A stretch of 64,000 nucleotides of DNA. Source: Pseudovirgaria hyperparasitica. Its lineage: Eukaryota. The notes under the pieces are model-generated. The model saw only the letters and a list, made by a program, of their open reading frames with translations, was not told where the DNA came from and searched no databases. The DNA lies in assembly GCA_010093815.1 (NCBI GenBank), contig ML996574.1, one strand, 5' to 3'. Each line of letters starts with the position of its first letter. The stretch's first letter is position 1. Shown here piece after piece: positions 4,855 through 61,100 of this stretch. A program made the translations under genes and the position numbers.

Positions 4855-5187
4855 AAACCGGTGCGGGTCAGATACCTTATATACGTGAATGTCAAGGCCA
4901 TATGCGATGAGTCGGTAATGATGAGAATCGAAATAACTTTACGTTCATACACAGCTGCTTTGCATATATCGTCGAAATGCGCCTTATAATGTATAGGTAA
5001 TCTATGCCCGTGGCTGGAGTTGCAGTACTTGAAGTTTCCTTGGGTGGGGCTATCCGGATGGGATCCGGATGGATCCATCCATTTCCAACCTACCCTGCCG
5101 GCTACATCATAGCCCTCTACATTCTTGGAACATTTCTCTCGACAGCAGTCAGCACACAATGCTGCTGGGCTCCTATTCCTCCTTGCC

Positions 5188-34060: not shown

Positions 34061-35371
34061 ATATCTAATACTAGTTCTATTCCTAAGCCTACCTCCTCCT
34101 CTCGTAAGACTTACTCTAAAGGGATTATCTCTACTCTAGCTATACCGGCTAAAAAATCCACTTATTATAGTAGTATAAAGGCGCGCTCTAAGTTAGAGAA
34201 GAAGGTAGCTAAGGCTACTACTACTATTATTATTACTACTAACGTGGCTACTAGTCGCTCTAATCTAGGTAATTCTAGTACTAGTGTTACGGAAGAGATA
34301 GCTATAGAGCCTATCTATATCTACTCGCGCTATCTATCTACTCTATCTCCTTTAGAGGATAAAGAAGATCTTATTATAGACGATAATTAAGAGTTTACGC
34401 CTTTACTACCTCGCTCTAAATACTATTCCTCTTTTCGGTCTAATATAGACCGACTTAGTCGCTCTAGGTCCTTTTAGGACCTTAATATTCGCTCTAAACC
34501 TAGCCCTAGTAATAATAAGGTCTAGGTCGCCGAAGATACTAAACGTAGTCACGGTTTACGCTATAGGAAAATGGTAAACTACGGTTTAATATACTTTAAG
34601 TATATTAAGGCTTACGCTACCGGCTCTAAATATCTCTTCCGCTCTAACTCTAGTATTAGCTACTACTCTACTAACCGCGATGGGTCTATACGCCTAATCT
34701 TTAAGCTCTCTACCCGCTACCGCTACTATACCGTCCTTAGTAAAGTTTATCTTTAGATAAGTCTATTAGACTATTTTAGTCTAGGGTAATCTAAAGTTAT
34801 CTATACTAATATATTTTTAGGTTTCTATTTATATATAAGATATATATAATGATCTTCGCGTCCGCGAGACTCTCGGCGGTTCTAGTAGTTATCTAGCTTC
34901 TATATATAGAGAGTTTAGGGAGCGCTATAAGCTCTTTCTAGAGGTTATTAAAGTATAAGTTTAGAAACCGTTAATTATTATTAATCTTAGCTTATAATTT
35001 TTAGTTACTACGAGATTCCTAGTACTTAGGCTACCTATTCTAGGGAGTTGGTTTTAGCTACTAAGGCTATAGAAGAGATTTATACTATTTCTTTCTATCT
35101 ACCTTATACTACTAACGGGTCTTATAAGAGATCTACTAGTTCTCCTTCTAAGTTACCTCGTAAGAGGGTATATATTCTATTCTAGATTATTCTAGACTAC
35201 GTTAGCTAACTTTAGGTCTAGTCGCTCCGCTCTAGCGCTTAGTCGTTATCTTACTAGGCTCTAACCAAGCGTGTAGTTACTCTAGAGGATAAGGTCTCTA
35301 ACCTCTATTACTCTATTACTTAGTTAGTTCGTTTACTACGCTCTAAGAGTAATAATAAGATAGAGGAGTAG
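34061..35371 (+). pseudogene. Antisense spliced Zn-cluster-like accessory gene of Gypsy A1 (RIP-inactivated)
   Basis: Collinear with 48980-50283. ATG changed to ATA; in-frame stops are TAG/TAA. Includes ORF-track 34571-34756. Confidence 0.65.
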
Positions 35372-36147
35372 CTCTATAGCTCTATTTACTAGGGTTTCTA
35401 TATAGTATATATTAGCTCTATCTACCTAGTTTCTATCCGTTTTAGTCCTTTTTAGACCGTTTAGATATCTATCTACTAGTTTTCTAGTAATTTAATTCTT
35501 AACTTAATAATATTATATACGTTCTTATTTATTCTATAACTATTAAATTTTAGGTTCTAATTTCCTTTAAGTTACTTAAGTATAGGCATTATATATAAAT
35601 TAGTTTATCTCTCTAAATTATATTAGAGTACCCGAACTAGTAGCCTAGTAGTTATTAGTTTAGGTACTCTAACCTTTTATATTATATATTATAAGTTCAA
35701 TTCCGTAGTAGGGTACCTTTTTAGTTTCTTAGTCCTATATTCTTCTCGTATATAATAGTCTATATTAGTCTATTCTAGACTTCTCTATGTTATTCTATTA
35801 TAATATATTACGTCGCGTACCTATAACGGTTATTTACGTTTTCTTCGCGTTTAGTAACCGTATATTACTTAAATTATAGGGCTGCCTTATAGAGTTTTCC
35901 TAGTGTGCGTTTAGGATTCGTAATTTAATACTTCGTTCTCTACGGTATCCTTCTTCTTTTTATAACGGCCCTAACGGTACTAGATTTACGGTAGTAACGT
36001 GTTATTCTATAATCTCTATTTATATATAGCTATCGCGGTACTTAAGATATATACTATAGGTTTCTAGGTATTCTTATCCTTAGTATAGTTCTTCTAACGG
36101 ATTCGATACTTTTAGATACCGTTCTCGTCGAGTCTATATTCGATAAT

Positions 36148-36349
36148 TGTAATGGATATAACCAAGGTATTGCTATAATAGTAATTAAGATATATTATAA
36201 TTTAACTTAGAGAGAGTAGGGATAAGCCGTATGGTTATAGCTTTAAGTATAGTCTTAAGCGAGGTCACGTGATACCCCTATACTAGTCTCTATCTATCCC
36301 GGCTCCGTTATATAATACTAGAGATAAGGTAAAGCCGAAGTCTATAATA
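36148..36349 (-). repeat. 3' LTR of Gypsy B
   Basis: Direct repeat of 43785-43986. Starts TGTAATGG; PPT complement (ACCCTTATTCTCT) is adjacent. Confidence 0.93.
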
Positions 36350-36498
36350 TACCCTTATTCTCTAGGATTGTCCTAGGGACCGGCTTAGTATTTTATATAA
36401 TAATAACCGGCTCGGTTAGGTCTTAGATTTACGGTCTTTATATCGTACTATATAATAACTATAGGGCTATATATTCCTTCTAGTAAGGTAGTAGCTTT

Positions 36499-36915
36499 TT
36501 ATAGTAGCGTTCTAGTAGTTATATAGCGGAGATAGGTTCTTTATACTACGGCGTTATAGATTATTAGATCGTACCGTAGTAGTATATTATAGTTACGTTC
36601 TAGCGGTTACGTAGTAGAGATAGATTCCTTATATTATAGTATTATAGATTATATAATCATAAGATAGTAGAATCTTATAGTTATATTATAGCGGTTATAT
36701 AGCGGAGGTAGGCTCCTTATATTATGGTATACCGCGTCGTGTTATATGAAGGTAGGGTAGCCTATACACGAACCGCGCGTCCCATTTTATTATTATCCGT
36801 TTTAGGACTAGCTACTCTCTAGACTAGGGGTTATATAGTAGTAGTAGGGTAGCTTACGCACGACCCGCGTTTATTATTATTATTATCTATTTTAGGACCG
36901 GCTCTACCCCGGTCT
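36499..36915. repeat. Two internal tandem repeat arrays in Gypsy B (88-bp x ~2.6; ~92-bp x 2)
   Basis: Units start at 36499, 36587 and 36675 (TTATAG..CGTTCTAGCGGTTATATAGCGGAG..) and at 36752 and 36844 (GTAGGGTAGC..CACGA.CCGCG..TTTTAGGAC). Confidence 0.8.
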
Positions 36916-37049
36916 ATACGATTTTCCCTAACGTAAGTATATAGGTTCTATATCTAGCGACTTTCTTCTTCCTTAACTACCCTTACGTCTACTATCTTAA
37001 TACCGCGTAGTAGCTACTATAATATTAGTAAACTTATATACTACCTCAT

Positions 37050-38500
37050 AGCTTCTATACTATTATTATAAGCGCTCTAGGCCTAAATAGTCCTATTATA
37101 GAAGCCGGCGCCGTCTTGGCGGTAGCTATAGGTGCTAGAGGTTAAGACCCTAACGATTGTCGCGCGCCTAGGCGCTAGGAACCAGCTAATCGTACCGTGA
37201 GTAGGTCCTATCCCTACGCCGTTCCTTATACTAACTAGATAGACTATTCCTTCTACCGCACCCTAATAGACTAAGTCTATTTACTATATAGGGCTATATA
37301 TTATAGAGGGTAACTCGTTAGAAGACGAGCGTACCGAGTCCGTATACTTTATATATTATATATATATAAAGGCCCTAGAGAAAACTAGGGTACTTAGGTA
37401 TATGCCGTCTCTACGCCGTAGTAGCGCCTACTAATCTTAGAGTATAGCTATAAGCCTAGCCGTGGTACTAACTATATAAAGTACCACATGTTAAAGGGGA
37501 CCTACTTATAGAATACTAAGAAGCTCGCTATATACCCGGCCTTACGTAAGACGTAGAGTCGTCTTAAAAAGTTTATACACGAGTCGGTTAATAATAACTT
37601 TAGCTATATAACGGACTATAGTAGTCGCGGCCTAGACCTAATAAAGCCTTCGTCTAGTAAGTAGCCGCGTATAAACTCTAAGTTCTACCGTCTATATAAG
37701 GACTATAAGTCTAACTTAGAGATTATCTATATCGCGCGACGTAATACTAGTATTATTAGTTAGACTTCTATAACGCCTTATCGTGGCGCCATAACGTTAT
37801 TTAAGCCGCTATATTACGGTAGTAGTAACCGTGGCTAGATTAGTAGCGTGATTTACTAGATGAATTAGTATATATCCTATAACGAGGCCTAGATAGGTAA
37901 GCTATATACTAGTATTAGTACCTTATAGATATATAAGCTTTATAAGCCTAAATATCTATTCTAACGCGTAACGTAGGGTACTATATAGTAAGTCGCGTCT
38001 AGGTTAGCCCGCCTAGCGGAGCTACTATCTTACCGCCTTATTACTTAGGTAGTTATAGAGGATAAGGAGCCCTTATTAGGTAGTAGCTACTTACGCTAAC
38101 CCCGGCCCGTAGACTATAGAGAGTCGCCGACTCGGAGCTCTTACTATCACCCTATTAGGCCCCCCCGGCTCTCTATCGCCGCCCCTCCTTATAAGTCCTT
38201 ACTATCTTATTATTAGTTCTAGACCCCTCCTTACTACTATAACCGCTCCCGGTTCTACGAGCGTTATAGCCGGTCCCCCACCTACTATAATTAGTCTCCC
38301 CGCCATTATAACTAGTTATATAACTATTATAACCGGTTACACGACCGTTACTATCGCTTAGGTAGCTATCGGTACCGTTCCTATAAGAATCGTTAAGCGT
38401 CGCGCCGCTATCGGTCGCCGGTCTACCCCCGCTATAACCCTCCTATAGACGAGTATAACTCGCCCTTACTACCCGTCTAGATTAATAGCTACTATCGTTA
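37050..38500 (+). pseudogene. Antisense spliced Zn-cluster-like accessory gene of Gypsy B (RIP-inactivated; ends approximate)
   Basis: Intron-like segments at 37197-37242, 37398-37447, 37897-37976 and ~38049-38112, each with a GT donor, CTAAC/CTAAT branch site and TAG acceptor. The spliced frame de-RIPs to C-x2-C-x11-C-x7-C-x2-C-x6-C. Confidence 0.55.
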
Positions 38501-38775
38501 TTAGAAGACGGCCTAGAGGAGGACTAGATAACTAACCTTATATTAGAATTTGCGGATAAGGATAGTACCGGCCCCAGCGCCGTGTAAACCTAGGGTAGAG
38601 CTAGATAAATAACCTTTTTATATCTTAAGGCGGGTATCGGTTTATTATTAGGTTATACTAGGTACTAGCGTTCGGCGTTTATTTCTTTCTTTCCTAAAAT
38701 CTCTACTCTTATATTAGGTTATCGGGGCCGCTATAGGCCTATAATAGTAGAGTAATATTACTACTTAGGGATATG

Positions 38776-41700
38776 TTAGAGTCGTGGGTCGTTATATAAT
38801 CGAGCGTCGCTATATCTAGACTCGAACTAGTCTAGTACCTTAGTATCTTCTACGTCCTCGAGTAGAACCTATATTAGTTATAACTAACCTTTCTACTTTA
38901 TAAGCACCTATCGCTTATTCTACCCCTATATATTTTTTATATATAGAATATTCTTAACCTCGTACTCCGCGACGTCCTTATCTACTTTATTAAGCTTAAG
39001 CGCCGGGCCCGGATAGATGTTAAGCCGCTCTTAGCTAGATAGGGGGTCCTCTATAGCGCGCTTAATAAGGCTTATATAGACTATTTTATAAAGGTCTCTA
39101 GGGAGGTTAAGGGTTACTATTAAGAGGGTAGATTAGGCTATAACCTAGTATTTTATCTATAGCTAGTCGAGCTTCCGGCTCGGGTAGTTAGTCTTTATAT
39201 TCTAGAGGGAGAACTATACTATATCGCCGACCTTAAAACGCTCGGCCGGGTATTATAACCGGTTTACCAAGTCTTAGGAGCGCTACTTAGCCTAGGTAAT
39301 AGCCGCTTAAGCTAAGGTAGTACCGTCCTAAAGGTATTTAAGGAAATTTATAGCCTAACCTTTCGCTAAGGTCGTAGAGGCGTTAGAGAGTAGCTACTAT
39401 AGTAATAGTTCGACGTGGTATCCGTTTAGAAGTAAGTTTAGTACTATACTAGTTACTAACGAGATATAGTTATTAAGGGCGAGCTAATATACTAGGAGAT
39501 ATTCTAGCTAGTTAGTTTACTCGAAAGTTACTATAACGCGTAGTATAGTCTATACCTCCTAGTTCGCACGCTTAGTACTACCGTCCGTCTACGGGTAGTA
39601 GACCGTAGAGAGGTTCTAGCGTATATCTATTATAGAGTAGAGGGTTATCTAGAACTACCTAAGCTAGTCCGAGCCCTAGTCCGTAATTATTAACTAGGGG
39701 AACCCCTAGAAACGCTACTACGTGTCGCGGAACCGCGTAGCGTAGTCCTTAGCTACTATAGAGATTATCGCCTCTAGCTAAATAAACTTTAAAAGCCGGT
39801 CTATAATAATAAGAAGATATTAGGGCTAGAACGGGTCTAATTAGGGGAGGTCGGTTATAAAATCTATAGAAATTTAGGACTAGAACTAGTCTAGTATTAG
39901 AAGAGACTAGAGGAGGCTAGAGGCCTTACGTTAGTTTACGTGGGCCCTATAGTAGTTATAGTTTCGTATGAACTACCGGATATTAGTCTATATCCGCTTC
40001 TAGTAGTACTTCCGCCGAATAGCTATATAAGTCTTATTCTTACTAGGATAGCCCGCGAGGGGGGAGGTATAGAACTTCTAGATAATAGTTATAGTAAGGG
40101 GTTCCTACTTAGGTACCCTAATAACCCCCCGCTATATTAGTATTCCGTATACCGATATAGCGTAGTCTATAACCTATTTAGTAGTAAGCGCCTCTAGTAG
40201 AAAGAGGTATACCCCGTCTACTACGGCCCTATAGTAGGCCCGGTATACTAGGACTAACTAAATAGTCTAGTCCTAGAGCTCCTAGAGGTGGAGGTTAGTA
40301 AAGATACTTTATCTCTAGGGGAGATAGGACTCTCTAGAGCGGGTACTTACTAGTACTATTCTAATGGCCCGTGAGGTTATAAGCCGTCCCCTTAGAAGGG
40401 ACTTTTTAGATAAGTTCTAGTTATAACGGCTTAGGGTATCCGGGTAGACCGCCTAGGATCCCGGCTAGTATATAAGGTTATAGTTAAATAGTATAAGCTA
40501 GTTAGACTATTATTACTACCGTGGGATAAGAAGGTAAGACTTAGTAAAGTACTTAAGGTTTTTATAGTCCGTATAGACCGTAAAGGGGCGGTAGACGCTT
40601 CGGAGCTTAGGTTCCCACGCCTAGAGGCACTAAACTACTATAAGGAGCTTCTTATTATAGATTATATAGTTCCGCTAAGCGGCCGTAAGGGCCGTGGAAT
40701 AGTAGGCTACCGGGTGCTAAATACCCCGAACCTTTTAGGATAGGTATCTACCCGTCATATATCCGGAGTAATCTACCTTAACTATTATATCGCGTGTCTC
40801 GTTCTAGGACTAGAGGATTAGCCTAGTAATAAAAGCGTTCTTTAGCGTATTAAACGCGCGGTCCTTAGCTAGGCCCTAGTAGAAGGCCGTCCCGGCCTTA
40901 GTAAGGGCGTAGAGCGGGGCTACTATGGTAGAGAAGTTAGGGAGAAAGTTATAGTAGAAGTTTATAAATCTAATGAACTACTAGACGCCCCGGACCGTAG
41001 TTAGGGGCTTCTAGTCCTAGATAGTAGTAATCTTCTCTAGGTTAGGGCGGATCGACTCTCTAGTAGTAATAACGTAACCTAGGTACCGGACCTCCTTAGT
41101 AGCAAAACGGTATTTAGTAAGGTCGTAGTAAAGGTCCGCCTTTATAAGGAGAGATAGAATAGTTTTTACGGCGGCCTAGTGGTCTTCTAACGTGCCTAGG
41201 GTATATATAAGAATATTATTAAGATACGCTATATAGGTAACCCCGAGGACCCCGCTTAGTACCCTATTAATATAGCGCTAGAAGGAGGTAGGGGCGCCGG
41301 AGAGACCGAAAGAGAGAACTATCTATTTAAAGAGGCCGAACTGGGTACGGAAGGCCGTCTTATATTCGTCCCCGGTAGCGACCTATAGTTTATAAAATAC
41401 TACCCGGATATCTACCTTACTAAACCACGATATATTACTAATGGTATATAGGGTCTTGCGTATAAGTAGTAGCGGGTATTAGTTCTATTTAGTAATACTA
41501 TTAAGGGCCCTATAGTCGATATATAGCCGCTACTTCCCTCCCGGCTTAGAGATAAGGAGTACTAGCGCCCTAGCCGCTAAGGAGCTGGCCCGTATCTATC
41601 CCTTATCTATAAGATTCGTAAGCTAGCGGCGGAGCTCTATAAGTTATTCCCGAGATATAGCGTAGAGGGGTCCCTAGGGGAGGTTTATAGAGGTTCCCGC

Positions 41701-43735
41701 CGGTATAGACTTAATATAGATATAGTAGTTAGTATTCCCTCTATGGAGAGGTAGCGCCGATACCTTTTCCTTATTAAAGAGATTGCGGTAGGCGTGTAGC
41801 GTTAACGGGAGCGGGCGCCTATCCTCTATAAGCTCGGTCGCGTCCCGGTCGGGTACCGGAGGTAACTAGGGGAGTATAAGTTATAGAAGGCGGGTAACGT
41901 TACAGATACTAGTAGCGACTACTCGCCTACGGCGGTAAGCTATCTCTAGACCTCTAAGAATATGGCCCTTCTTAGTAAGGACCCGGATACTTATTAGGCG
42001 CCTATAGATATTAATATCCCGGGCTATAAGGCCGTGGGCGCGGTAAAGCGTAATTTTACCTACGTGTATATTAATAACGGCGCCGGCCTAGTAGAGCCAT
42101 AGGCTCCTAAGAATAAGATCCCGGTCTAGCCCGGGTACTATATAGGCGGTAAGGCGTTATCGCCACCCCGTAATATTATACTAGATAGTAATAACTTCTA
42201 TAATCTCCGGTCCTAACGCTCCGTTAGCGGCGAGAGCTACTTAATAATATAGAACTAAGATACGCGACTTAGCCACGTCCGCTATAAGGGCCGGGCTAAC
42301 TACCACGAAATACTCGCACTCTATATCTACTAAGGCGTCTATATACTTCCTATTCTAGAGGAATAGTAATATAACGGGTGGGGGTCTATCTATAACCCGA
42401 GCGGGCGCGCTATTCTCTAGGTCGGAGCCGTTATCCGGGTTACCTATAGCTTTATTCCTTACTAAATATAGTAACGTCCTCTAACCCGGGCTTTAGTAGG
42501 GGGCTATACTTCCCCCGCCTTAGAGTTAGAATTAGTATCGTCCTAAGCTAGGGCTATAACCTTGAGCGCTTATATATTAATAGCGTTTAGATAGCCCCGG
42601 TATTAGTAGCTAGCCTAGCCGTACTAGATATATACACCCGCCGTACGGTGCTTCTAGAATAAGTTCTTTAGGATCTATAAAGGAGTCTCTTTCTTCTTAA
42701 CCCTATCTCTACTCTTTACCGTTAGTAACGCGGCTTACTTCTTACCCTTTATCTTAATAGCCTTAATAGTAACCGCCGACATCGTTATATCGCTATTCTT
42801 ATCCTTACTAGGCCTATTTTAAGGTATGGTGCTTTACCTAGTACGGAGCTAGAATAACTCTATATCTATACTAATATCTCTAAGGTGGCCTATAGCGGCC
42901 TCGTACTAGTCTAGGAGGCCCCGGTTTAGGGCTACCGCCTAGGTCTCCTAGTTAAGGCCGTTCCGGAGCCGTATAAGCTTCTAGTTATTAGCCTAGTATA
43001 TTCCTCTAGCCTTCTAGAGGGCGGTATAGAACCGTACGAAGTACTCCGTAAACGGCTCCTTTACCTTTTATATAATTATATTTAACCGCTAGAGGGCCCG
43101 CTCTTTAGCATGTGTATCTCCGAACTAGAATTTAAGGTAGTCTAAGAACGTATACGGGTCCTAGTTGCCGTTTAGCCCCCTAGTAGAATATATAGCGCTA
43201 ACCCCCCTCTATATCTTAGGCGCTAGGTTAGCCTAAATAAGGGCTATTTAGTCTCTATAGGTGCCGATAAAGTTAGTGTCCCGGGTAATCTTATACTATA
43301 TTATAACGGACTATATACGGAAGAGGGCCTTAGACCTATTATATAGGTTACTAAGGGGGAGGGGCTTCCTCTTAGGAGCCCGGTTAAGTATAATATACGG
43401 CGTAGAAAGTGGTAAGGCGGGAGCGCGCGTAGAAAAGACTAGTTTAGGCCCGTATAGACGTTAGAGCGCTACTAGGGAGGAGTTAGGCTAGGGTAGAGAC
43501 GAGTCGCTATAAGTTAAGGTAGCGGGAGTACGGCTATATAACTCGATCGTAAGGAGGTAGGCGTTAATACGTTATAGAGCCGTATAGACGCTATATTCGA
43601 TATTAGATATCTAAGACTCGCTTACCGCTTAGGCGGCCGTAATAGACTTATAGATAGACCGTATCTCGTCCCGAAAGCTAAGGAAGGAGTTAGAGAGTTA
43701 CTATATTAGATTAGAGTCTTACGGGTTAAGACTAT
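38776..43735 (-). pseudogene. gag-pol of Gypsy B (gag, PR, RT, RNase H, integrase, chromodomain)
   Basis: Domain motifs readable through RIP-type TAG/TAA stops; ends approximate. Confidence 0.85.
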
Positions 43736-43784: not shown

Positions 43785-43986
43785 TATAATAGATATAACT
43801 AAGGTATTACTATAATAGTAATTAAGATATATTATAATTTAACTTAGAGAGAGTAGGGATAAGCCGTATGGTTATAGCTTTAAGTATAGTCTTAAGCGAG
43901 GTCACGTGATACCCCTATACTAGTCTCTATCCGTCCCGGCTCCGTTATATAATACTAGAGACAAGGTAAAGCCGAAGTCTATAATA
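43785..43986 (-). repeat. 5' LTR of Gypsy B
   Basis: Direct repeat of 36148-36349; the differences seen are transitions. Confidence 0.93.
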
Positions 43987-44569
43987 ATAATATAGTCTAC
44001 TTTATATACGTCTAGTCTATCTTAGAGTATAATAGAGTATAATTACACGTTCGTATATTTATATATATTAGGTTAAAACCTTTTAAGTAATAAGACGTGG
44101 AATACGTTATAGACTTTTATATCGTTTCCTAGGTTAAGCTTATAGGCTCTTATACTAATATAACGTTTGATTTGGAAGGGACCAGCCATTTTATAATCGA
44201 GCTTTTTATTTACTCGCGATATTTATATATTATAGACGTTAAGAAGGACTTCGTCTCCCTCCTTATACGCTTAATCTTTAACTAATCTATTATAGTACTT
44301 TATATATAACTTATTTACTTACTAGATTATTACGTAATAGTTACGTGTGGTTTTAAAGATTTTAATCGCTAGTTTCTACGTGTGGACGTTAATATCTATT
44401 ATTCGGTCGAACTAGACCGTATAAGGTTTAAAATCTATCCTTAGACTACGTTCTAGGTTCGCCTAGAAGGGTGTAACATCTATTATACTATAACGACTAT
44501 TATTATACGCGAATTCTACTATACTTAGTAGAGAGGCCTAGTCGTCTTATTTAAAATTATAGAATATAT

Positions 44570-44590: not shown

Positions 44591-47500
44591 ATTATATAAC
44601 TAGGTAGAGTAGTACTCTATAGGCCTATGCCTTCTCTAGTCTAAGCTACTATATAAGAAGAAACCCCATAGGGAAAAACTTCCTTATATCTATAACTATA
44701 TCTCGTTAAACCTCTGTTTCGTCTTAAGTATATAGCTATAGAGTACGCCTATTAGCCTATAGCCTATGTTACCGTTATTTTACCCTTAGATAGCACGTAT
44801 AGATGCGGAGGTTATTAGTTAAGGGCTGCCCTCGACTAATAATCGGGGTTCTCCTAGGGTTCTTCCGGTATATATTGGGTTACTACCGGCGTATACCGGG
44901 TCTCTTCCGGTATATATTTCCGGGTCTACTAGTACTAGAGGAGTAGTAGATATATAAGCATCTATTAGGAGACGTCCTTAGGGTACTTATTAAGCTGTCG
45001 TACGATATCTAAAGTCTTCGTAACGTGGATAAGCTATTACCGTTATATATAGAGGTTAGGGTATATAGCTAGATAGTAGCGTATTATACCTCTCCGGCCG
45101 TACGCCTTATACTATAGGGAGGTGTCGGGAACGCCTCTCTTATAGATATAGTATAGGAGTCCTATAGCGCCCGTTCGGGCTTAGATAAGTATAGATACTT
45201 AGGCTTTCGTTAGCCCTTTATATATCTATTTACTCGGTTCCTTCTATGGCCCTCGAATCTACTCTAGGTATCTATTCTACTAGGAGGTCTAGTAGGTATA
45301 GAGTGCCTCTTTCTACTTATCTTAAGTCTATAACTATATATTTTTCACGAGTTCTTAAAGGCTCTACCGGTCTAGGAGAGCGTCCGGGTTATCTCGGACT
45401 TCTTATACTACTTAGCTAGAGTCGGCTTCTATTAAGTACCTATACTATATTCGATTCCGGCCTATATATAGGAGTGCGTGGTAATATATACTAATTCGTG
45501 CACGTAGCGCGGCGAAAGTATATTCTACGTTTCCTATGCGTTCCTATACTTATTATTTAGTGAAGTATACCACCCTCTATATCTAGTAGAAGTTATATAT
45601 ACTTATAACGTCTATCTCGCGTCGTAGTAGTACTATGTTAGTAGCTTTATATACGCCTAATATAAGATAGAGTATACGGTTCTATATGGATTCGAGCTTT
45701 ATTCGCCTAGTCTATATAAGGGCCGTGTACTAGTACTCGTGTCCGTACGTGAAGGCGGGTTATACTATAGATATATATAGCTAGCGTGCCTTATCCCGGG
45801 CGGTTCCCTACGTGGAGGCTATAATCCGTCGTATAGCGGCTTCTATCTAGAGGGCCCTAGAGACGGCGTATACTACTTATGGTCCCTATTTAAGCTTACT
45901 ATCTAGTATAACTCCGAGCGCGCGCATGCTTTATACTAGTAGTTCGTTAAATACGTCGATTCGGGGGCGTTGTTCGCCTTCCCTAGTTACCTATTTCCCT
46001 TAACGATTAATAAAGTATATAAGCTAGTATTTCTCCGGGGCGAACTTTGCTCCGTAGCGTTTTACCTACTAGAGATACCTCTCGTGGTCCTGTTCTAGTC
46101 GTCTACACGTTCGGTTAGTATTATTATCGATAGCTAGAAGGTATATGTTATCGGCATATCCGACTACCTCTATATACTTTATTTCTTAAAGAAGGTCTAC
46201 CGTAAAGAAGAGGAATAGAATCGGAGAGATAGTGCTCCCTTATAGGATGCCGCATGCCGTCTCTTTATATTTACTCTAGTACCTAGGGATATATATCTAA
46301 GTTATTCTTTCTATGAGGAATAACTATATAAAGTATATAATCTATTCTAGTATTCGTCTTATCCGGAGGTTATAAATAAGTCTTATATAGTTTACCTTAT
46401 TAAACGCTCCGGCTATATCGAGGGAGAGGAGCGATACTACCCGTCCCTATTTCCATACGGCCTAGATAACTTTAATAATATATTAGATAGCTATTATTAG
46501 GGAGCTATCTATCTTTACCTTCTAGTTCGGAGGGAGAAGATTATATTCCTATACCGCGGTACTTATCTTCTTTACTATCATGGCCTCTAGTATCTTACCT
46601 AGGTAGAAGAGAAGGGCGATTAGTCTCTATCCCTTTAGGGAGTTAGAGCTCTTTCCTAGTTTTAGGAGTATAATAGTATAGACGACTTAGAAGCTCTAGG
46701 GGTGGTACCCCTACGTGACGCATGCTTAGAATATACGAGTAATAAGCGGTAGGGTCGCTTTTATAGTACTTTTTAGGTATCGATTTAGAATTCCATCTAG
46801 TCTAGGTACTTTATTATTTAGAAGTGTCTTAATAATATTAAGTATATCCTCCTCCGTAACTTCTTCGGGGATGTCTACCGCGTATAGATATTCGGCGCCG
46901 TGAACGTCTAATAGGTCTACTAGTTCCGGGAGAGGGAATATAGCCTCCCGTAGGGCCTTAGTTTTCTTAAGGCCCGTAGAGTATGTTCTCCCCTAATATA
47001 TTAGAGGAGGCATAAGTAGTAGGGGTATCGGAGTGTCTACGCCCTTAGCCTATTTTACTATGCGCTATAGCCCTATTACATATCGTGTCTATTAACTAGT
47101 AATTATACGCTACTATTTACGCCTTTTATTACGGAGGACTTTATCGCGTTATTATATTACTTCCTTCTATTCTTCCTATAACTCGGGTATTCTTATACGG
47201 TATATACGTCTATATAGCCTTCGGGCGTCTTATCTACTTTCCCGTACTCGAGGAATCCCCTTTACTTCCGGGGGCCGGTATATTCGGTATAGTACGTGTT
47301 TATTTCTCGCATTCTAGTATATTTATAGAAGTATCTATACGGCCTAGTCTATAGCTAGGTCGTTAGATATATCGACTATAGAGGGATCTAGGATCGCCGA
47401 TTCTAGGTCCTTTAGGTACTTTTTCTAGTCGGTGTCCTTCTATATCTATCGTCCCCGTTATTTATTCGGGGTATATACGTTTATTATAGTTTCTATATAT

Positions 47501-48251
47501 TCGTGGTCGGAATCCGTCTATACCTAGTCTAGGCGGTAGTATTAGATCCGGTGACTAATATACTCCGTAGCGAAGGTAAGGTTAAGCGTAGACCCGTCTT
47601 TATCCTATTTATGTTTTTTCTATATAACTTATTCTATAGGTGTGAGTAGGTATAGGAAGTCGTAGTAGCGGGTGCGTAGTTCCCTTACTCTAAGTTCTTC
47701 CCTAACCATGGCTAGGCCTCCCTACTATTAGTAGTAGAGATTAAAGTCTCCTAGGAGAATATGTTACTCTAGTTCCGTAGTACCCTCGAGCATCTCGTCT
47801 AGTATAAGTATACGTTATTAGTTATATATGTTATATATATATAGGGGGCCTATATCTATTTATAGGTGTAGTATTATCCTAAGGTTATCGCGCTTAGTAT
47901 ATAACTATAATAAGAGTAGTATTAACCTATAAATGTGGAAGAGGACTCGTCTTTCTAGTCCTAGAGGGTATATAGTATGGTATCCGGGGTGTATGGTTGG
48001 TTTACTCGTCTAGTAGTATTTATAGGGTTCCTAGATAGCGAGTATTATAGCCCCGGTCTCTTCGAGGAGCGTCGCCTAGTTCTCTCTTTTATATTATATG
48101 TTTATCTATATAATTCGGAGTATATTCTAGTCCCTTATTAGATACTAGAGAGTATATATATCTATATACTTATTCCTCGGAGGCGCGACTATCCTCGCGC
48201 GGTAGCGGCTTTAACTATACCTTTTAGTCGTCCTATCGTCTTTGGGATAGT

Positions 48252-48979: not shown

Positions 48980-50283
48980 ATGTCTAATACTAGTCCTATT
49001 TCTAAGCCTGCCTCCTCCTCTCGCAAGACTCGCTCTAAAGGGATTACCTCTACCCCGGCTATACCGGCTAAAAAATCCACTTATCGTAGTAGTGTGAAGG
49101 CGCGCTCTAAGTTAGAGAAGAAGGTAGCTAAGGCTACTACTACTATTATTACTAACGTGGCCACTAGTCGCTCTAATCTAGGTAATCCTAGTACTAAACT
49201 TATAGATAAAGTGGTCGTAGGTTCTCCTCTCGCTCTAAAGCGTACGCCGTCTACTCTATCTCCTCTAGAGGATAAAGAAGATCTCGTTATAGACGATAAT
49301 CGCGAGCCCTCGCGCTTACCCACGCCGCCGCCTCGCCGCTCTTCCTTCCGGTCTAATATAGACTAATTTAGTCGCTCTAGGTCCTTTTAGGACCTTAATA
49401 TTCGCTCTAAACCCTAGCCTACTAATAATAAGGCCTAGGTCGCTAAGGATACTAAACGTGGTCGCGGTTTACGCTATAGGAAAACGGCAAACTACGGTTC
49501 GATATACTATAAGTATATTAAGAGCTATACGGCCGGCTCTAAATATCTCTTTCGCTCTAACTCTAGTATTAGCTACTACTCTACTAACCGCGATAGGCCT
49601 ATACGCCCTATCTTTACTCTACCTACCCGCTACCGCCGCTATACCGTAACTAGTAAGACTTATCTATAGGTAAGTATAATAGGCTATCTTAATCTAGTAT
49701 AATCTAAAGTAGTCCGCGCTAATATATTCTTAGGTTCCTATACGTATATAAGATGTATATAACGACCTTCGCGTCCGCGAGACCCTCGGGGGTCCTTATA
49801 GCCGCCTGCCTACTATATAGAGGGAGTTTAGGGAGCGCTATAAGCTCTTCCTAGAGGTTATTAAAGTGTAAGTTACGAGCACGTTAATTATTTTTAACAC
49901 CCGTTGATTTTTCTAGCCGCCGCGAGATCCCTAGCGCCTAGGCTACCTATTCTAGGGAGTCTATCCTAGCCATAGAGGTCGTAGAGAGGATTCGCTCTAT
50001 CCCCTCCTATCCGTCTCGCGCTACTAACGGATCTCGTAAGAGGTCTACTATTTCTCCCTCTAAGTCGCCTCGTAAGAGGGTATATATTCTATTCTAGATT
50101 ATTCTAGACCGCGTTGGCTAACTTTGGGTCTAGTCGCTCTACTCTAGCGCTTAGTCGTCGTCTTACTAGGCTCTAACTAAGCGCGTGGTTACTCTGGAGG
50201 ATAAGGTCTCTAACCTCCGTCGCTCTATTACTCGGTTAGTTCGTTCGCTACGCTCTAAGAGTAATAATAAGATGGAGGAGTAG
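48980..50283 (+). pseudogene. Antisense spliced accessory gene of Gypsy A2: basic disordered N-terminus, Zn2Cys6-like motif, C-terminal coiled coil
   Basis: Starts as ORF 48980-49366 and continues in frame through RIP-type stops. Introns at 49670-49733, 49868-49916 and 50080-50133, plus an upstream intron 48791-48979 ending directly before the ATG. Splicing keeps one frame to TAG 50281-50283. Confidence 0.72.
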
Positions 50284-50599: not shown

Positions 50600-53500
50600 G
50601 TCACGAGTTTAATTCCGTAGTAGGGTACCTTTTTGGTTTCTTAGTCCTATGTTCTTCTCGTGTATAATGGTCTATATTGGTCTATTCTAGACTTCTCTAT
50701 GTTATTCTATTATAATGTATCGCGTCGCGTGCCTATAACGGTTGTTTACGTTTTCTTCGCGTTTAGTAACCGTGTATCGCTTGAATTATAGGGCTGCCTT
50801 ATAGAGTTTTCCTAGTGTGCGTTTAGGATTCGTGATTTAATACTTCGTTCTCTACGGTATCCTTCTTCTTTTTATAACGACCGTAACGTCGCTATACTTA
50901 CATTAATAATGCGCTATTCTATATCTTTTACTTATACGCAGCTATTATAGAACTTAAGATGTATACTACTGGTTCCTAGGTGTTCTCGTCCTTAGTGTAG
51001 TCCTTCTAACGGATTCTATATTTCTAAATACCGTCTTTATTAATCCCATGTTCGATAATATGGTCTACTTCGAACACGTCTAGTCTATCTTAGGGTATAA
51101 TAGAGTGTAACTACACGTTCGTGCGGCTATACATGTTAGGTCGAAATCTTTCGAGTAGTAAGACGTGGAATACGTTATGGATTCTTATATCGCTTTCTAA
51201 GTTAAGCTCGTAGACTCTTATACCGATACGACGTTTAATTCGGAAGGGACTAGCCATTTTATAATCGAGCTTCTTATTTACTCGCGACGTTCATATATTA
51301 CGGATATTAAGAAGGACCTTGTCGCCCTCCTCGTACGTCTAATCCTTAGCTAACCTATTATAGTACTTCGTATACGAGTTATTTACTTATTAGATTATAG
51401 CGCGATAGTTATATACGGTTTCGAAGATTTTAATCGCTAATTTCTAAGCGTGGACGTTCACGTCTATTATTTGATTAAATTAGACCGTCTAAGGCTTAAA
51501 ACCTATTCTTAGACTGCGTCCGAGGTTCGCCTAGAAAGGTATAATATCTATTATACTATAACGACTATTATTATATACGAACTCTACTATACTTAGTAGG
51601 GAGGCCTAGTTATCCTACTTAAAATTATAGAATGCGCGTAGGTAGGCCTCGAGCGTCTGGTTCTATCGCTCTATCTAGCTATCCGTCTAAGGATAAAATG
51701 CTATAGACATGTTTCTATTCATGCTTGCCATTTCGTAGAATAACGTCTAGAATTTAGACGTGAAGGTACTTCCTCGGTCCGTAACGATCCTTTTTAGTAT
51801 ACTATGGACCTTAATAATCTCGTTCTAGAATACCTGCGCTAGTTCTTTAGATGTAATTGTCTTCTATACTAGGATATACCTAGATATCTTTATGAGTCTG
51901 TCTATGATAATAAGAATAGAATTATAACTTATTCTAAGCATCTCGCTTAGAGGCAAGTTAACTATAAAGTCTATAGTAACGTCTTCCTACATAAAGAGGG
52001 GGGCTAAAAGAGGCTATAAATTCCTATATAGCTTATGCCTAGGGGCCTTCGTTCTTTAATAAATCGGATAAGTAGCTATCTATTCTTTAACGTACTTAGG
52101 TATATCTTCCTAAAAATAGTACTAATGAATTAAGCTTAGGGTACGTATATATCTAAAGTATCCTACTAGGTTAGTGTTATAGTATTAGCTAACTACGTTA
52201 AATCGCGTGTTACCCGTTAGTATATAGTACTTTCTATTATAGTAAAGTAAGCCGTCTACGAAGGTCTACTTATAGTCTACTTTAGTCTATAATAACCCAT
52301 CTTACTATATTTTACGTAACTTTAAAACTATCGGGTCTATCTTCTATAGATCCACGATTAACTAGGCGAGGTTAATTAGATATTTACGCTGGGTATTATC
52401 GTCCTTCCCGACAGCGCTAATAAACGGCCTACTAGGGACTTCGGTACCGCGTCTTTGGTTACCGGCTTCGGTCTTAGAGATTTAATTACCGGTATCGACG
52501 TTAGTATCTTACTAATCGCCTAATAACTTAAAATCTAACCTTATCCTTAAGAGTTGGGTCTATAGCTACTCTAGGACCCTATAGCTACCATAATTCTAGG
52601 CGCCTTCTTTATAGTTAGGTCTTCTTAATATTCTATTAGCTAGGTTTATACTTCTAGGTTAATAGTAGATTATAAAGTAAAAGTTCGTAAGCTACTTAGC
52701 CTATTAGACCTATCGACGGTTTAAAACCGTCGTGCTTATAAACCCCTTTAAGTTATAGTAATTAGTTAGTAACTTAATGTTATACATGGTACCTTTAAGA
52801 TAATATCGCTACTATTTAAACGACTCTACTATTACTAGTAGCTCTTGGTTATAGATAGTATATCTAGTCTTAATATTAACTATTTTACGTGAGAAGAACG
52901 CAACTAGATACTATTAGACCTTTTTAGACTTAGTTAGTCTAGGCTAGGAGAGAATACCTAAGATTATAAATTCTAACGCGTCGGTTTTAACGCGGATAGG
53001 TTTAGTCGGGTCGAAGTACACTAGCAATGGGGTAGTTATAAATGTCTCTTTAATTTTCTCGAAGGATATTCTTTCAACCTTAGTTAATTTAATAGGTTAT
53101 AATTTAATATTATACTATTTCTATCTACTACGGACCGTAATAGACGAGTCGGTAGTAGTAGTACGCGCATTAAGTGGTGCGGCTAAACGGGAGAAGTACT
53201 TAACAAATTTTCGGTAGTAATTAGTAAATCTAATAAAGACATGTATATCTCGAACCGATTTTAGTTTAGGCTAGTCCACGATAGTAGCAACCCTATCTCT
53301 TTCTATAGTTATACCTTAATTAGTAATAACGAAGCCAAGGAAGTTAACGTGGTCCTAGTGGAACTCGCATTTAGATAGCTTAATATATAGCTTATATTTT
53401 TCTAGCCTATCTAGAACTACGCGTACGTGCTAGATGTATTCTTCTTCGTTATTAGAGAAGATAAGAATGTTATCGAGGTATACGATGCACGTCATATCGA

Positions 53501-56263: not shown

Positions 56264-58140
56264 ATAGTCTACTATCCTATCTAACTACCTTCCGGAGGGG
56301 AGGTTAGGGGTATTATAAAGGAAGGGCTCGTAGTAGGTATTATATTCTATAACTATCTTACGCCTCTCGCTTTTATCGTACGAATGTATTCTATAATCTA
56401 TTTACGTTTTATATACGTTAACGACTATAACGGGTATTTCCCGTTGTAGTTTAAATACTATACTATGTCCCTGTTTCTTAGTCCGTCTCCTCGCGGTTTA
56501 TAAGGGCACTTCTAGATAGCGTAGTCCCTACGGTACTATCCGTACTTAGTCTTCTATAAGTATCTTTATATAGTATATCTATACCCTTCATATTACCCAT
56601 GCTCTATCCTATGGCTCGGCCATAAGGAGCTCTCCTTCTATTAGGAATCCCTCCTATATAATATATTATATAAGGGCGGGGTCTCGGAGCTCTATAATTA
56701 TAGTAGAGTGTTTTTTCGCCGTCGTCTTAATCGTCTATAGGTTCTTCTACCACGCTTTCACGATCTTAATCCCTAGGTATTTTCGCGTGTTAGATTATTC
56801 TATACGCGTAATATTCTCCGCTCCGATAGCCTATCCCCGTACGGGTACTATATATACTATAATCGGGTATATAGCTACCCTAATAGACGCGCTAGGGAAG
56901 ATACTACCTATCGCGTTCGGATCTCGCGAGATGTTTTACTACGTAGTATTCGTTATAGTAGTAAGTACTACCCTACCTAGCGTAACTTTAGTAGCCACGA
57001 CGCTTAACTATATTCCTTTCTATTTATTAATCTTATTTATAATTTCCTTTAGGGATGCCTATTAGACCTATGCCAGCGTGTCCTTATCCTAGATTATAAT
57101 ACGTATACTATATACTCTATCTATAGTCCTAGTAGTCCTTAGTGCGGTAGCTCCGGGTATTACTATAATCTAAGCCTACGTGTTAGGGCGCTTACCTTAG
57201 GATAGCTCTTTCTAGATTCTCCATAGACTAGCTTCTATTTGGTTAAGCCTACTACTAGGTTCCTCTTATGGCGACTTCCTTTCTTCCTCTATAATTCCTC
57301 TTAGGTTCTAGATAAGGTCCCGGAATATATAAAGAAGGGTCTTCTTTCCCTCCTTAGCGTCCCTCTCTATATATATTACCTAGTATTTAATTTTATCTAG
57401 AAGGGTCTCCCCTCTCGGGGTCCCCTCGGTCTAGGTTATCTATAGCGCTTCGTACCCTTAGTTAGTTCCTATATTTTAGATAGGTGTCTAGCTATCTATA
57501 TTAATGTCGCTATATGGCCGTTTCTACTATACTAGTGGGGGTATATCCGGCGTATACCGGGGTATTACGATACCTAAGGCCGCTATGGTTATTAGTTAAG
57601 GGCAGCCCTTAACTAATAAAAGGGGGTCGGCGTGTTAGCGTTTATTAGATATAGTCTATACTCGTGTTATCGAAGAGTCTTCGAGCGTATATATATAGTG
57701 TCTCTATACGTCGGTATCGTCGCGTATTATATACTATACGTACGCACGTGTGTTGGAGGTTATTATACTCGGTATACTCTATCGTTTAATGTATGTAAAT
57801 CGCTATTTTACCCTAAATTGACTAGTTTGGTCCGTTAGGGTGTGAGAAGTTTTTTTATTATATTTCTTATAGAATATATAAAGGTAGGTCTTAAGCGTTT
57901 AGTTCTATCACTCTATCTAACTATCTATTTATAGATAGAATACTATTAATATATTTCTATTTATACCGGCCATTTCGTAGAATAACGTCTAGAATTTAGA
58001 TATGAATATACTCCCTCGGTCCGTAACGATCCTTTTTAGTATACTATAGACCTTAATAATCTTATTCTAGAATACCTATGCTAGTTCTTTTAATATAATT
58101 ATCTTCTATATAGGGACGTACCTAGATATCTTTATAAGTC

Positions 58141-61100
58141 TATCACGGAAAGTGACAAGGAGACGAATAACGGTAAGAACTACGGACTGAAGGTCCGATA
58201 TAGATAGCCGTAGATTCTATGAAGTAGCTAGTAATTAATTTAATACTTAACCAAGACTTAACATCTCTGTCCTTAACATCTTGGTAGCTAAAAGTATACC
58301 ACCAGCTAATCATTTTCGAAAGAAAGATAGTACTAGTCGAATATAAGACACTAACGCCCCGACGTACTAGTTCTCCGAAGCCAAATTAAAAGACGTTAAT
58401 ATCCCGACTTAGTAAACGAAAGACGCTTCCGTAAAATTTAGTAAAAGAAGTTCATGAAAACGGTAAGATAATTAGTAAGAATAAGAGAATACTAGGCACT
58501 AGGTAACGTTCGTTACCGTTACCATCATTAAGACTCGTAAGAGTATTAAATTATAAAAGGAGTCCTAAGGAAGGAGCCACGGGAACGGTAAACAAAGGAT
58601 TTGCCACTAGAGGAAAACAGGAATGAGTATCCGCTTTGAAGGCCTTACCTTATTCTAACCATACTAATTTCCGTAAGACTTATTCTAGAGTATTATAGAA
58701 ACGTAGTATAAGTACTAGTGTTTCTAAACGAGTCGTGCATTAAAAGGATCGAGCTCCCTACGATTCCCTAGTTCCCGTTAAGTAAGGAACACGATACTAT
58801 ACCACGACCGGTCACACTTAGTGCTAGTCGAACCCTACTTTATAGGAATAGGTTAGTACTAATTAGACGAGACGATTAGTACACGAAGCCTCGGTTTCCG
58901 CGAGCTACTAAGGTTAGAGTAGGTTCCTACTAAACATTCCTAATTATCTAAGTATACTAGAGAAGCTCACGTCCGCGCCTCCTGCGGCCGACATTCTTAG
59001 TATACTTAGGAACACATAAGATATACTAGCTCCCTTACTGGTATTATAGAAGGAACCGATTCCTAAGCTATTAGAGTAAGTTATTAAAATAGCTTATTAA
59101 CTTATTTATTACTTTAAAGATAGCCTACTACATGAATTAAACCCCTATACCCTTATCTTACTTCGAGGTATTACCCACGTATACCTAGAAGTCTTAAGAA
59201 ATCGAAATTGTTTACGGTCTAGGGGTAAATAGCCTTAGAAAGATAGATATTCTCCTAACTAGAACTATCTCGTGAATAAGGATTACGGAATACGTCTAGC
59301 GACTACCGAAGCTATAAAGGTCGAAAGGCTAGCGGTAAATTTCCGTTAATCTAAATATTTCAGTAACTTTAGAAACTTCGTATAGCTAAGAGAAGTAAAT
59401 TTACCTTCCTCGTCCCCTCTATCATTAATTGAAGTTCCTACCGCGCTAAAGAAAAGGCCCGTAAGACTATAAGACTTCGAGTTTCACGACGAAACCGTGA
59501 GACTAGAGAACTCCAATTCTCGCGAGACGATAATCTCTAATCCTTACGAGGCGATTATAGTACTAGAGAATCCTTATTAGAGAGGAAGCTCGAGCTAAGG
59601 CGTAGAGAGAAGCGGAGAGCAAGTCGGAACGCCTTAAAGCCTCGAGCCTCCAATCCCGGCTCTAATTCCAGTTCCTATTATGGCTTAGTAAGCCTAGCCT
59701 AATCTGCTAAGCGTAGAAATGATCGCGTAAATTACGATGATAGTTTTAGCGGTACTTAATAATCGTGAGAGGGTAAATCCTCTAGTAGAATAAAGTAGAG
59801 CTAGCTAAGTCGCGCCCTCTTAGGAAAGGCCTTAGGGAAGAAATAAAGAAGAACTTTCTAGAGACCGTCCGTCTAGAAACGACTACCATAGGTAAGCTTA
59901 GCCTATAGTAAGAGTTTTAAGGAACGATAATAATCTAAGTAAAGGCTTAGACGACGATCTATAGGGAGACGACGATAGAGCTCGGGGTTACCGTTATAGA
60001 TTATATATGCCCCTATATCGTCGCCGGTGAACTACGGAAACTAGAGACTATAAAGATAACGATAGCTTAAATCTAAGAGACACGAAGTTTAGAATAGAGG
60101 ATATTAGATTCTTCGATCCGAGTATAGATCCTTCAAGAATAGAAGATGTTTATAATAAGAATAGAAAGGTCTATTATAGATCCGTTCAGCCGTTTATCGA
60201 CGTAATAAGGAACTATTAGTAGACATGCCCTGCGAAAATCATTCATTACAATCTCTATAAGTGTCTTAGAGGCACGGCGTAAATTTGGTATAGCTCTTAA
60301 TTAAGCGACGCTATAAAGTTAAGTCTTACTAGCGGAGATGGACTTAAGCGCTAGGTTAAGAAACTCGAAAAGAGATTCTCTATACCTCTAAGTGCCGCCT
60401 TAAAGAGACTCTAAGGCATATTATATGGCCCCGAGAACTTATATGGAGGCTAGAGCACGACTAACTATGTTATAAAAGTACTTAGGGCTTATAAAGAGGC
60501 AAATTTGAAATCTAAAGTACTTATTATAGTATAGGCCTAGAATAAGCTCGACCTAAGATTTAGGGTAAGCATAGAGGAACCCGGATCTAATACTAATCTA
60601 GATACCTTTTATAAACAGCTCGAATAGAAGTCATAGACCTAGCGTGAACTCTATAAGTAGAGTAAGTTTAACTATTCCCATTCTAGTAAAGCGTTATAAG
60701 ACTAGTATCCGTCGAACTACTATCCTCGTAAAGAAAAAGAAGTCGGAAATAACTACTTTCAAGGGAACCGCGGGACGCGATATAGTAGTAGCGGCGGACG
60801 AGAGGACCGCCCTAATAAGTTTCAGATAATAAAAGAAAGTAAGAAAGTAATCTAAGTCGTATCTTCTTAGATAAACGAGTAAAGGTCTAGTAAAGACCGC
60901 GGTTAAAACTAGTATTAAGGTAGAGACCGTCGCCTATATAAAGTAGACCGTCGCCTATATAAAGGGAATAGTAAGTATTAGCTAAAGAGTTTTAAAAAGA
61001 CCACGATAACTTCTATACAAGTTAAGAGGCAACCTTATATAAAGCCGTAACGCGCCTATTATAATACTATCCTAGTAGAGTTTCTCGATTAAGAAGGATC

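Follow-up and report, generated by a model that had tools for sequence, protein, structure and literature searches.

The first half of a 64,000-nt stretch of Pseudovirgaria hyperparasitica DNA (contig ML996574.1; the whole stretch is referred to here as the window) has a normal composition (1-32000), and its second half (32000-64000) is a block of heavy repeat-induced point (RIP) mutation, with TpA/ApT of ~2 and (CpA+TpG)/(ApC+GpT) of ~0.1. Within this RIP block lies element B, a RIP-wrecked Ty3/Gypsy chromovirus on the minus strand, and our subject is a putative spliced gene for a zinc-cluster protein on the opposite strand (37050-38500), between the pol gene of B and its 3' long terminal repeat (LTR). 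B has the LTR pair, gag, and a pol with reverse transcriptase (RT), RNase H, integrase and chromodomain that mark a chromovirus. The 3' LTR (36150-36349, minus strand, 200 nt) and the 5' LTR (43787-43986, minus strand) are 97% identical. The gag gene (42560-43199, minus strand) is represented by a gag-like translation in the frame of 43790 and by a segment in frame -2 of the coding classifier described below. The RIP-damaged pol gene (38830-42450, minus strand) runs from protease to chromodomain, with RVT_1, RT_RNaseH and Integrase_H2C2 in a single minus frame. Read with X at stops, it matches RVT_1 at E 3.9e-20 and RT_RNaseH above the cut-off, and Integrase_H2C2 scores 20.3 against a cut-off of 25.5, i.e. 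below it. The chromodomain was recognized by eye and via alignment to a protein, P0002, whose precomputed domains include PF00385 (chromo).

B is itself nested within another Gypsy copy: its flanks (36003-36122 and 43987-44100) match 50915-51034 and 51055-51168. The family is multi-copy in DNA contigs from two runs of one sample, where depth over the post-pol region equals depth over pol, and the copies differ nearly always by transitions (among the differences listed, 40 of 1060 variant places); two further runs contributed nothing to the element. Pol ends ~2.4 kb before the 3' LTR, so that the long region claimed for B in the original prediction, which had been made from the letters of this DNA alone, is real given the LTR pair and the mapping of pol. 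On the 3' LTR side of the antisense gene, this region includes three tandem 88-nt repeats (36483-36746), over which the depth of family copies falls, and a purine-rich tract read in the sequence (36352-36363, minus strand) adjoins the 3' LTR and may act as a polypurine tract.

On the plus strand, four intron-like segments, 37197-37242 (46 nt), 37398-37447 (50 nt), 37897-37976 (80 nt) and 38049-38112 (64 nt), are each bounded by GT at the start and AG at the end; CTAAC is present in three of them, and 37398-37447 has CTAAT instead. The frame of 37446-37898 holds eight stops, every one TAG, exactly as had been claimed for an exon at 37448-37896. Splicing 37397 to 37448 gives the peptide originally proposed, in which six tyrosine (Tyr) codons, TAT or TAC, stand for cysteine (Cys). 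These codons start at 37354, 37363, 37449, 37473, 37482 and 37503 (plus strand, span 37354-37505), and the spacing after splicing is C-x2-C-x11-C-x7-C-x2-C-x6-C.

An unmutated relative allows this reconstruction to be compared with an intact element. The pol of B, again read with X at stops, matches P0002 (1230 amino acids (aa), E 4e-253, 95% of the query covered). The contig that encodes P0002, L001, is 7656 nt long, ~60% GC and unmutated, with intact gag and pol frames; it can be taken as one element unit because its two ends share 101 identical nt, and its assembly holds a single copy of the element. A quick RT-RNase H tree with 80 rows places B and L001 as sisters (support 99), and their pol proteins are identical at 679 of 1212 residues (56%) when RIP reversion is allowed. 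L001 is filed in a cyanobacterial assembly, where its pol bears the name of a DDE-type integrase; a fungal contaminant is almost certainly the source.

The evidence supports, in this nearest unmutated relative, a spliced antisense gene that is intact and has its six Cys where they were predicted. Behind pol on the minus strand of L001, five predicted exons (7124-6864, 6809-6729, 6674-6291, 6236-5877 and 5814-5206) splice to a stop-free frame of 564 codons, with a product of 564 aa. The introns between them (54, 54, 54 and 62 nt) start with GT, carry a CTGAC or CTAAC branch motif and end in YAG, and all are in phase 0. The product has exactly six Cys, which form one motif, C-x2-C-x11-C-x8-C-x2-C-x6-C. 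GC content at codon positions 1/2/3 is 0.68/0.55/0.70, which is coding-like when set beside 0.62/0.48/0.69 in pol.

Homology between the B remnant and this gene was assessed with RIP-aware scoring, in which each B codon counts as the best-scoring residue that a reversal of TpA to CpA or TpG can yield. L001 residues 115-362 align to 37243-37397 joined to 37448-37896 with a score of 255, compared with 109.4 +/- 11.6 (maximum 165) for shuffled queries, none of which reaches 255 in 1000 trials; a repeat gave z 11.6, with 0 of 400 shuffles as high, and z ranged over the tests from 11.6 to 12.5. Each of the six Tyr codons aligns to a Cys of L001, and all six L001 Cys are accounted for, which bears out the six Cys expected after splicing and reversal of RIP. 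Identical columns number 70 of 190 with RIP reversion allowed and 40 of 190 as observed. The alignment stops at L001 residue 342, 20 residues short of L001 intron 4. With the L001 Cys exon as query, the B locus ranks first and third among 636 chunks of the RIP block. Transversions between B and L001 fall on the three codon positions as 61/50/86, the same shape as in pol (263/207/469). A plain tblastn search with L001 open reading frames (ORFs) against the RIP block left the B locus unmatched, and a RIP-tolerant DNA alignment of the post-pol regions was fragmented, untrustworthy and set aside. Together, the comparison confirms that the B remnant is homologous to the predicted L001 gene, inclusive of the exons 37243-37397 and 37448-37896, the six Cys and the intron at 37398-37447. 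The copy in the window is a dead pseudogene.

The alignment also discriminates among the proposed splice sites. The exon with Cys1 and Cys2 (37243-37397, plus strand, frame +1) aligns from L001 residue 125 onward, with homology from 37249 and a putative 5' boundary, and the exon with Cys3-Cys6 (37448-37896, plus strand, frame +0, the one with eight TAG) adds ~130 conserved residues, with homology to 37877. The 50-nt intron between Cys2 and Cys3 (37398-37447, plus strand, GTATAT..CTAAT..TAG) must be removed, because unspliced frames score just 151 and 179 (z 3.9 and 4.7) against 255 (z 11.6). L001 has no intron at this site, and B reads through the position of L001 intron 3; among the DNA contig matches listed, no family-B copy lacks the segment. 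So although all four of the introns originally claimed exist as motif-bearing segments, only the one at 37398-37447 is upheld by homology. The segment at 37197-37242 is disfavored and probably mis-bounded (z 1.0 spliced, 2.8 as an unspliced +1 reading), and those at 37897-37976, near the position of L001 intron 4, and 38049-38112, which has no L001 counterpart, give z of at most 1.3 whichever variant is aligned to the L001 protein (all three on the plus strand). Farther upstream, a GTAAGT at 36934-36939 (plus strand) with CTTAAC downstream may correspond to L001 intron 1. The low-complexity stretch at 38113-38442 has ORFs on both strands, is variable among family copies (their depth falls at 38168-38438) and is weakly similar to L001 exon 5 (z 2.0); it probably encodes the disordered C-terminus of the antisense protein. 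At E up to 1, Pfam has no match to 36350-38800 read through in all six frames, and a word-indexed protein search with frame +0 of 36900-38480 found no match among candidates of 289-923 aa. The sole match of 37446-37898 among 1.84 billion representatives, a cadherin-like repetitive protein of 5864 aa, was judged spurious.

Does the coding signal of the B sequence itself point to a gene? Stop density had to be rejected as a frame guide. The true integrase frame of B has 12-16 stops per 100 codons and is the richest in stops, so the stop-poorest frame is no guide to a gene in RIP DNA; at 39500-39900 (minus strand) the true frame has 15-16 stops per 100 codons and another frame just 2-5. A purine/pyrimidine-recoded (RIP-invariant) periodic model trained on host ORFs gave too weak a signal, failed on B pol, and was also dropped. 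A three-periodic first-order Markov model trained on the window's other RIPped transposable element genes called strand and frame correctly for 53 of the 62 windows of 450 nt that were held out from training, and also flagged coding stretches outside its training set, such as the remainder of a long interspersed nuclear element (LINE). The best post-pol segment of this classifier, 37467-37758 in frame +0 (score 11.4), coincides with the exon and frame of the original prediction. Per null model, 1-2 of 300 simulations reach this score (P about 0.003-0.007); the segment is suggestive only, because 11.4 ranks among the lowest scores of real coding windows and among the highest of unexplained ones.

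What kind of domain do the six Cys form? The Zn2Cys6 consensus is C-x2-C-x6-C-x5-12-C-x2-C-x6-8-C. It had been claimed that the spacing in B is close to canonical. The first loop departs from this consensus: it has 11 residues instead of 6 and is, by our alignment, lengthened by 5 residues in the B/L001 lineage. A profile that includes the L001 domain does match Gal4-type domains. The profile derives from an alignment, A3, of L001 with domains from three metagenome loci introduced below (L013, L016 and L059), in which the six Cys are invariant and L001 has a 5-residue insertion in loop 1. Against 177,635 PDB sequences, Zn2Cys6 DNA-binding domains make up the top 12 of 18 matches, with modest E-values for Leu3 (6e-4), Gal4 (6.5e-4), Ppr1 (0.008) and Put3 (0.04); Pho7 and Lac9 are also among these 12. 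For L013, L016 and L059, the best Pfam family is Zn_clus (PF00172), though sub-threshold. The AlphaFold2 (AF2) model of the L016 domain (predicted local distance difference test score (pLDDT) 78.1) has helices at 27-31 and 46-50, each after a CxxC, and a long helix beyond the cluster. Foldseek ranks 1-10 with this model, at weak E-values, are all Zn2Cys6 domains, among them Pho7 (root-mean-square deviation 3.5 over 37 columns). In the antisense proteins, the cluster has a basic stretch and long regions of disorder or coiled coil as its neighbors; the fungal-specific transcription factor middle homology domain was not found in Pfam scans of the antisense ORFs. For L001 exon 3 alone, a PDB sequence search returned nothing relevant, and an AF2 single-sequence model (pLDDT 52.8) was unusable and left aside. 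The clusters closest to it in the ESM Atlas consist of unnamed Ascomycota proteins (0.86), a lead only. Overall, a relationship of the predicted domain to Gal4-type Zn2Cys6 DNA-binding domains is supported.

The pattern recurs in other Gypsy elements. Alignment of pol relatives gathered 78 Gypsy loci from metagenomes, of which 49 continue for 500 nt or more past a complete pol end and 35 for 1500 nt or more; with L001, 79 loci (~700 kb) were scanned in six frames. The strict pattern demanded canonical Zn2Cys6 spacing built of Cys alone, loops free of further Cys and no more than one canonical intron. Five loci match it, three unspliced (L013, L016 and L059) and two with an intron between Cys3 and Cys4 (L018 and L040). 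All five matches are antisense and 400-970 nt past the pol end; on either strand of pol, downstream in sense orientation or elsewhere in the 79 loci, the strict pattern has no match. The antisense-downstream compartment takes up ~9.5% of the sequence scanned, which gives a chance probability of ~8e-6 that all five matches fall there. The positives are spread over three separate parts of the quick RT tree. Within one clade of 17 rows, 11 loci have at least 1 kb downstream, and of these three match strictly, three have two C-x2-C-x6-C triplets spaced 111-118 nt apart, two are candidates and three have nothing. The motif was not seen in most of the 49 metagenome loci with at least 500 nt downstream.

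Two loci with a complete LTR pair have the motif past pol and ahead of the 3' LTR, at 9399-9517 in L037 (pol end 8633, 3' LTR from 10130) and at 7718-7751 in L046 (pol end 6980, 3' LTR from 8463); the antisense genes of B and L001 are likewise placed inside the element. The antisense orientation to pol is common to B (gene plus, pol minus), L001 and all strict matches. A hidden Markov model of A3 gave further partial antisense-downstream matches in L041 (E 0.005) and L037 (E 0.014). The L013 and L016 ORFs, 165 and 198 aa long from Met, pass from a basic N-terminus through the cluster and a long charged helix to an acidic tail; their ends abut the pol end. Introns within the cluster lie between Cys2 and Cys3 in B (37398-37447) and between Cys3 and Cys4 in L018 (5296-5247) and L040 (5856-5811), and are absent from L001, L013, L016 and L059; L001 has an intron after the domain (6290-6237) without counterpart in B. 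The original prediction had envisaged a general accessory module in RIP-exposed fungal Gypsy elements. The module does occur in several lineages, but exposure to RIP is no prerequisite, since the intact examples come from unmutated elements. In some metagenome loci, tandem repeats of 24-35 nt that form arrays just behind pol or in the flanks (L011 7089-7807 and 11831-12478; L046 172-461) recall those of B. Two pol relatives of ~1680 aa, P0013 and P0014, have a precomputed SET domain (PF00856) besides the usual Gypsy domains.

Might the gene nonetheless be a mere passenger? Zn2Cys6 genes are very numerous in fungal genomes, and the ancestor of B and L001 could have captured one, or a piece of one, that plays no role in the element, with the resemblance in other lineages a coincidence. 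Such a capture would fit intron positions that vary by lineage and the lack of detectable similarity between lineages outside the Cys domain. It fits poorly with the same position and orientation in three separate parts of the RT tree, with three strict and three two-triplet loci among the 11 of the 17-row clade, with L013 and L016 ORFs that end against pol, and with retention in both B and L001 at 56% pol identity of a gene whose frame is the most conserved. We consider this explanation improbable.

Less probable still is that what is conserved is an ORF on the sense strand, or a nucleic-acid element that the retrotransposon uses in cis, with the antisense frame a by-product. L001 does have a 321-aa open frame on the sense strand (5140-6105), and outside 37300-37800 the classifier alternates between frame +0 and its shadow frame -2. 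However, the gene frame is the best conserved between B and L001 (z 5.5), whereas z does not exceed 2.7 in any other frame or 2.1 in those of the sense strand. Moreover, four canonical introns restore an ATG-to-stop frame in L001 on the antisense strand only, and the six invariant Cys and the Gal4-type profile matches are confined to the antisense frame. This makes a sense-strand or cis-acting origin very unlikely.

In RIP DNA, intron and Tyr motifs of this sort prove little by themselves. Across the six frames of the RIP block, 7.9% of residues are Tyr, and a relaxed Tyr/Cys pattern fits three loci in these 32 kb. Order-2 Markov simulations yield 0.26 such loci on average, a null that we distrust because real RIP frames are locally Tyr-rich. 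Yet an accident of Tyr-rich, TA-rich RIP sequence is scarcely credible as the source of the pattern in B, even though Cys1 and Cys2 fall within a TA-rich run (37340-37370) and two more loci (45474 and 57650) fit the relaxed pattern, in view of the homology to an intact gene that no shuffle equals, the first rank of the B locus among all chunks, and a coding-periodicity segment in the same frame.

Several observations weigh against the reading of 37050-38500 as a gene for a Gal4-like protein. All of the antisense genes discussed here are predictions from DNA sequence, and the unmutated relatives found for the lineage of B number just one. Chance ORFs are long in 64% GC DNA (simulated mean 220 aa, 95th percentile 313), the contrast in stops between L001 exons and introns is partly circular, and the codon-position test is biased by an alignment built at the protein level. 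L001 exons 1, 2 and 5 have no significant similarity to B. Residues 151-413 of the L001 protein found no match in protein collections among candidates of 351-1119 aa, and the B exon found no credible match in large protein collections within the lengths searched. As for the domain, the canonical spacing is broken by the first loop of B and L001, L001 does not match Zn_clus even at E up to 10, and L013, L016 and L059 score 13.0, 17.0 and 13.3 bits (E 0.12, 0.006 and 0.09), under the 21-bit gathering cut-off; every Foldseek match has an E of 0.2 or worse. The lineages share no sequence similarity beyond the Cys domain, tblastn with the L001 antisense protein found no match in the 78 metagenome loci at E up to 0.01, and the RT tree is the product of a quick search only.

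On balance, we conclude that the plus strand of 37050-38500 is very probably a RIP-destroyed copy of a genuine, intron-containing antisense gene for a Gal4-like DNA-binding protein. The antisense spliced zinc-cluster gene originally placed between pol and the 3' LTR of B thus finds its intact version in L001, to which the B remnant has significant homology. A promoter of its own, near the element's 3' end, may drive the gene. The introns of the gene would persist through retrotransposition, given that the genomic RNA is the opposite strand, on which they are not spliced. The protein is expected to bind two zinc ions and DNA, probably as a dimer, with the element's own LTR or the adjacent tandem repeats as the most likely targets, and would thereby tune the element's transcription.

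Should the protein indeed regulate the element, fungal retrotransposons would have a self-encoded, directly testable control circuit, and mobile elements would be tied to the largest fungal transcription factor family. More speculatively, a sizeable share of fungal chromoviruses may carry their own Gal4-type factor, antisense and intron-protected, with binding sites in LTRs or repeats; we offer this as a tentative idea that is more likely wrong than right. If true, mobile 'factor plus sites' units could control their own bursts, spread ready-made regulatory sites through genomes, and have swapped genes with, or seeded part of, the fungal Zn2Cys6 family. Regardless of function, genes erased by RIP are recoverable when codons are scored against possible pre-RIP ancestors and compared with an unmutated relative, and the absence of these antisense genes from the protein collections searched implies that current annotation misses such genes.

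Other features of the RIP block were noted. A plus-strand ORF of 128 aa from Met occurs at 48980-49669 and 34061-34756, in the post-pol region of another Gypsy family whose pol is on the minus strand (RT 53804-53324), and a Tyr-rich stretch follows in the ORF frame. This is probably the gene that the original prediction assigned to a first such family, A. The family A plus strand compared with the L001 protein gives a z of about 0, shows no canonical Tyr/Cys pattern and was not picked up by the relaxed scan. A LINE-like element (44843-48173, minus strand) has RVT_1 at 46635-46014 within a coding-like segment of 3.3 kb, mostly outside the training set, and the canonical six-residue Tyr/Cys pattern antisense to it, at ~45474, looks like chance. 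A coding-like segment of 1.9 kb at 56299-58196 (minus strand, score 31.8), outside the training set and without Pfam match, may be a transposable element gene.

So, are there precedents for such a gene? Antisense accessory genes after pol are known in plant Gypsy elements and retroviruses, and the fungal Zn2Cys6 case, as predicted here, is apparently new. Searches of freely accessible papers turned up no antisense or Zn2Cys6 accessory gene in any fungal retrotransposon, and 'antisense', 'zinc' and 'transcription factor' do not occur in the main text of a 2011 survey of fungal LTR elements. Plant Ty3/Gypsy elements (Retand, Grande and RIRE2) have an antisense additional ORF between pol and the 3' LTR, and a regulatory role is suspected for the antisense proteins of Retand-type elements and some retroviruses, according to PMC11963269. 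Like Retand-type elements as portrayed there, B has a long region between pol and the 3' LTR, an antisense gene in it (in the plant elements thought to be nuclear or DNA-binding, and regulatory), and tandem repeats in the same region, 3 x 88 nt in B. The plant elements differ from B in that they are non-chromovirus, with TRP28 (PF04195) as the usual domain (PMC11963269). Here, in contrast, the host is fungal, the elements are chromoviruses, the domain is of Zn2Cys6 type and the predicted introns are short and spliceosomal. TRP28 had no Pfam match in any antisense ORF scanned.

A second parallel is with a protein of the bZIP type, HBZ. It is the retroviral antisense protein of human T-cell leukemia virus type 1 (HTLV-1), as cited in PMC11963269. 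Like HBZ, the fungal proteins are predicted to be regulatory and nuclear and are encoded opposite gag-pol, near the 3' end; unlike them, HBZ belongs to an animal retrovirus and has no sequence relation to the fungal antisense proteins. The third parallel is with the Gal4-type factors themselves. Retrotransposon domains differ from these in that they are encoded within a mobile element, that the products of L013 and L016 reach just 165-198 aa, that all are under the Pfam cut-off, and that the first loop of B and L001 has 11 residues. However, like Gal4, Leu3, Ppr1, Put3, Hap1 and Pho7, they have six Cys in two CxxC-containing halves, and like Gal4-type dimers, the L016 domain is modeled with a short helix for each CxxC and a long helix after the cluster.

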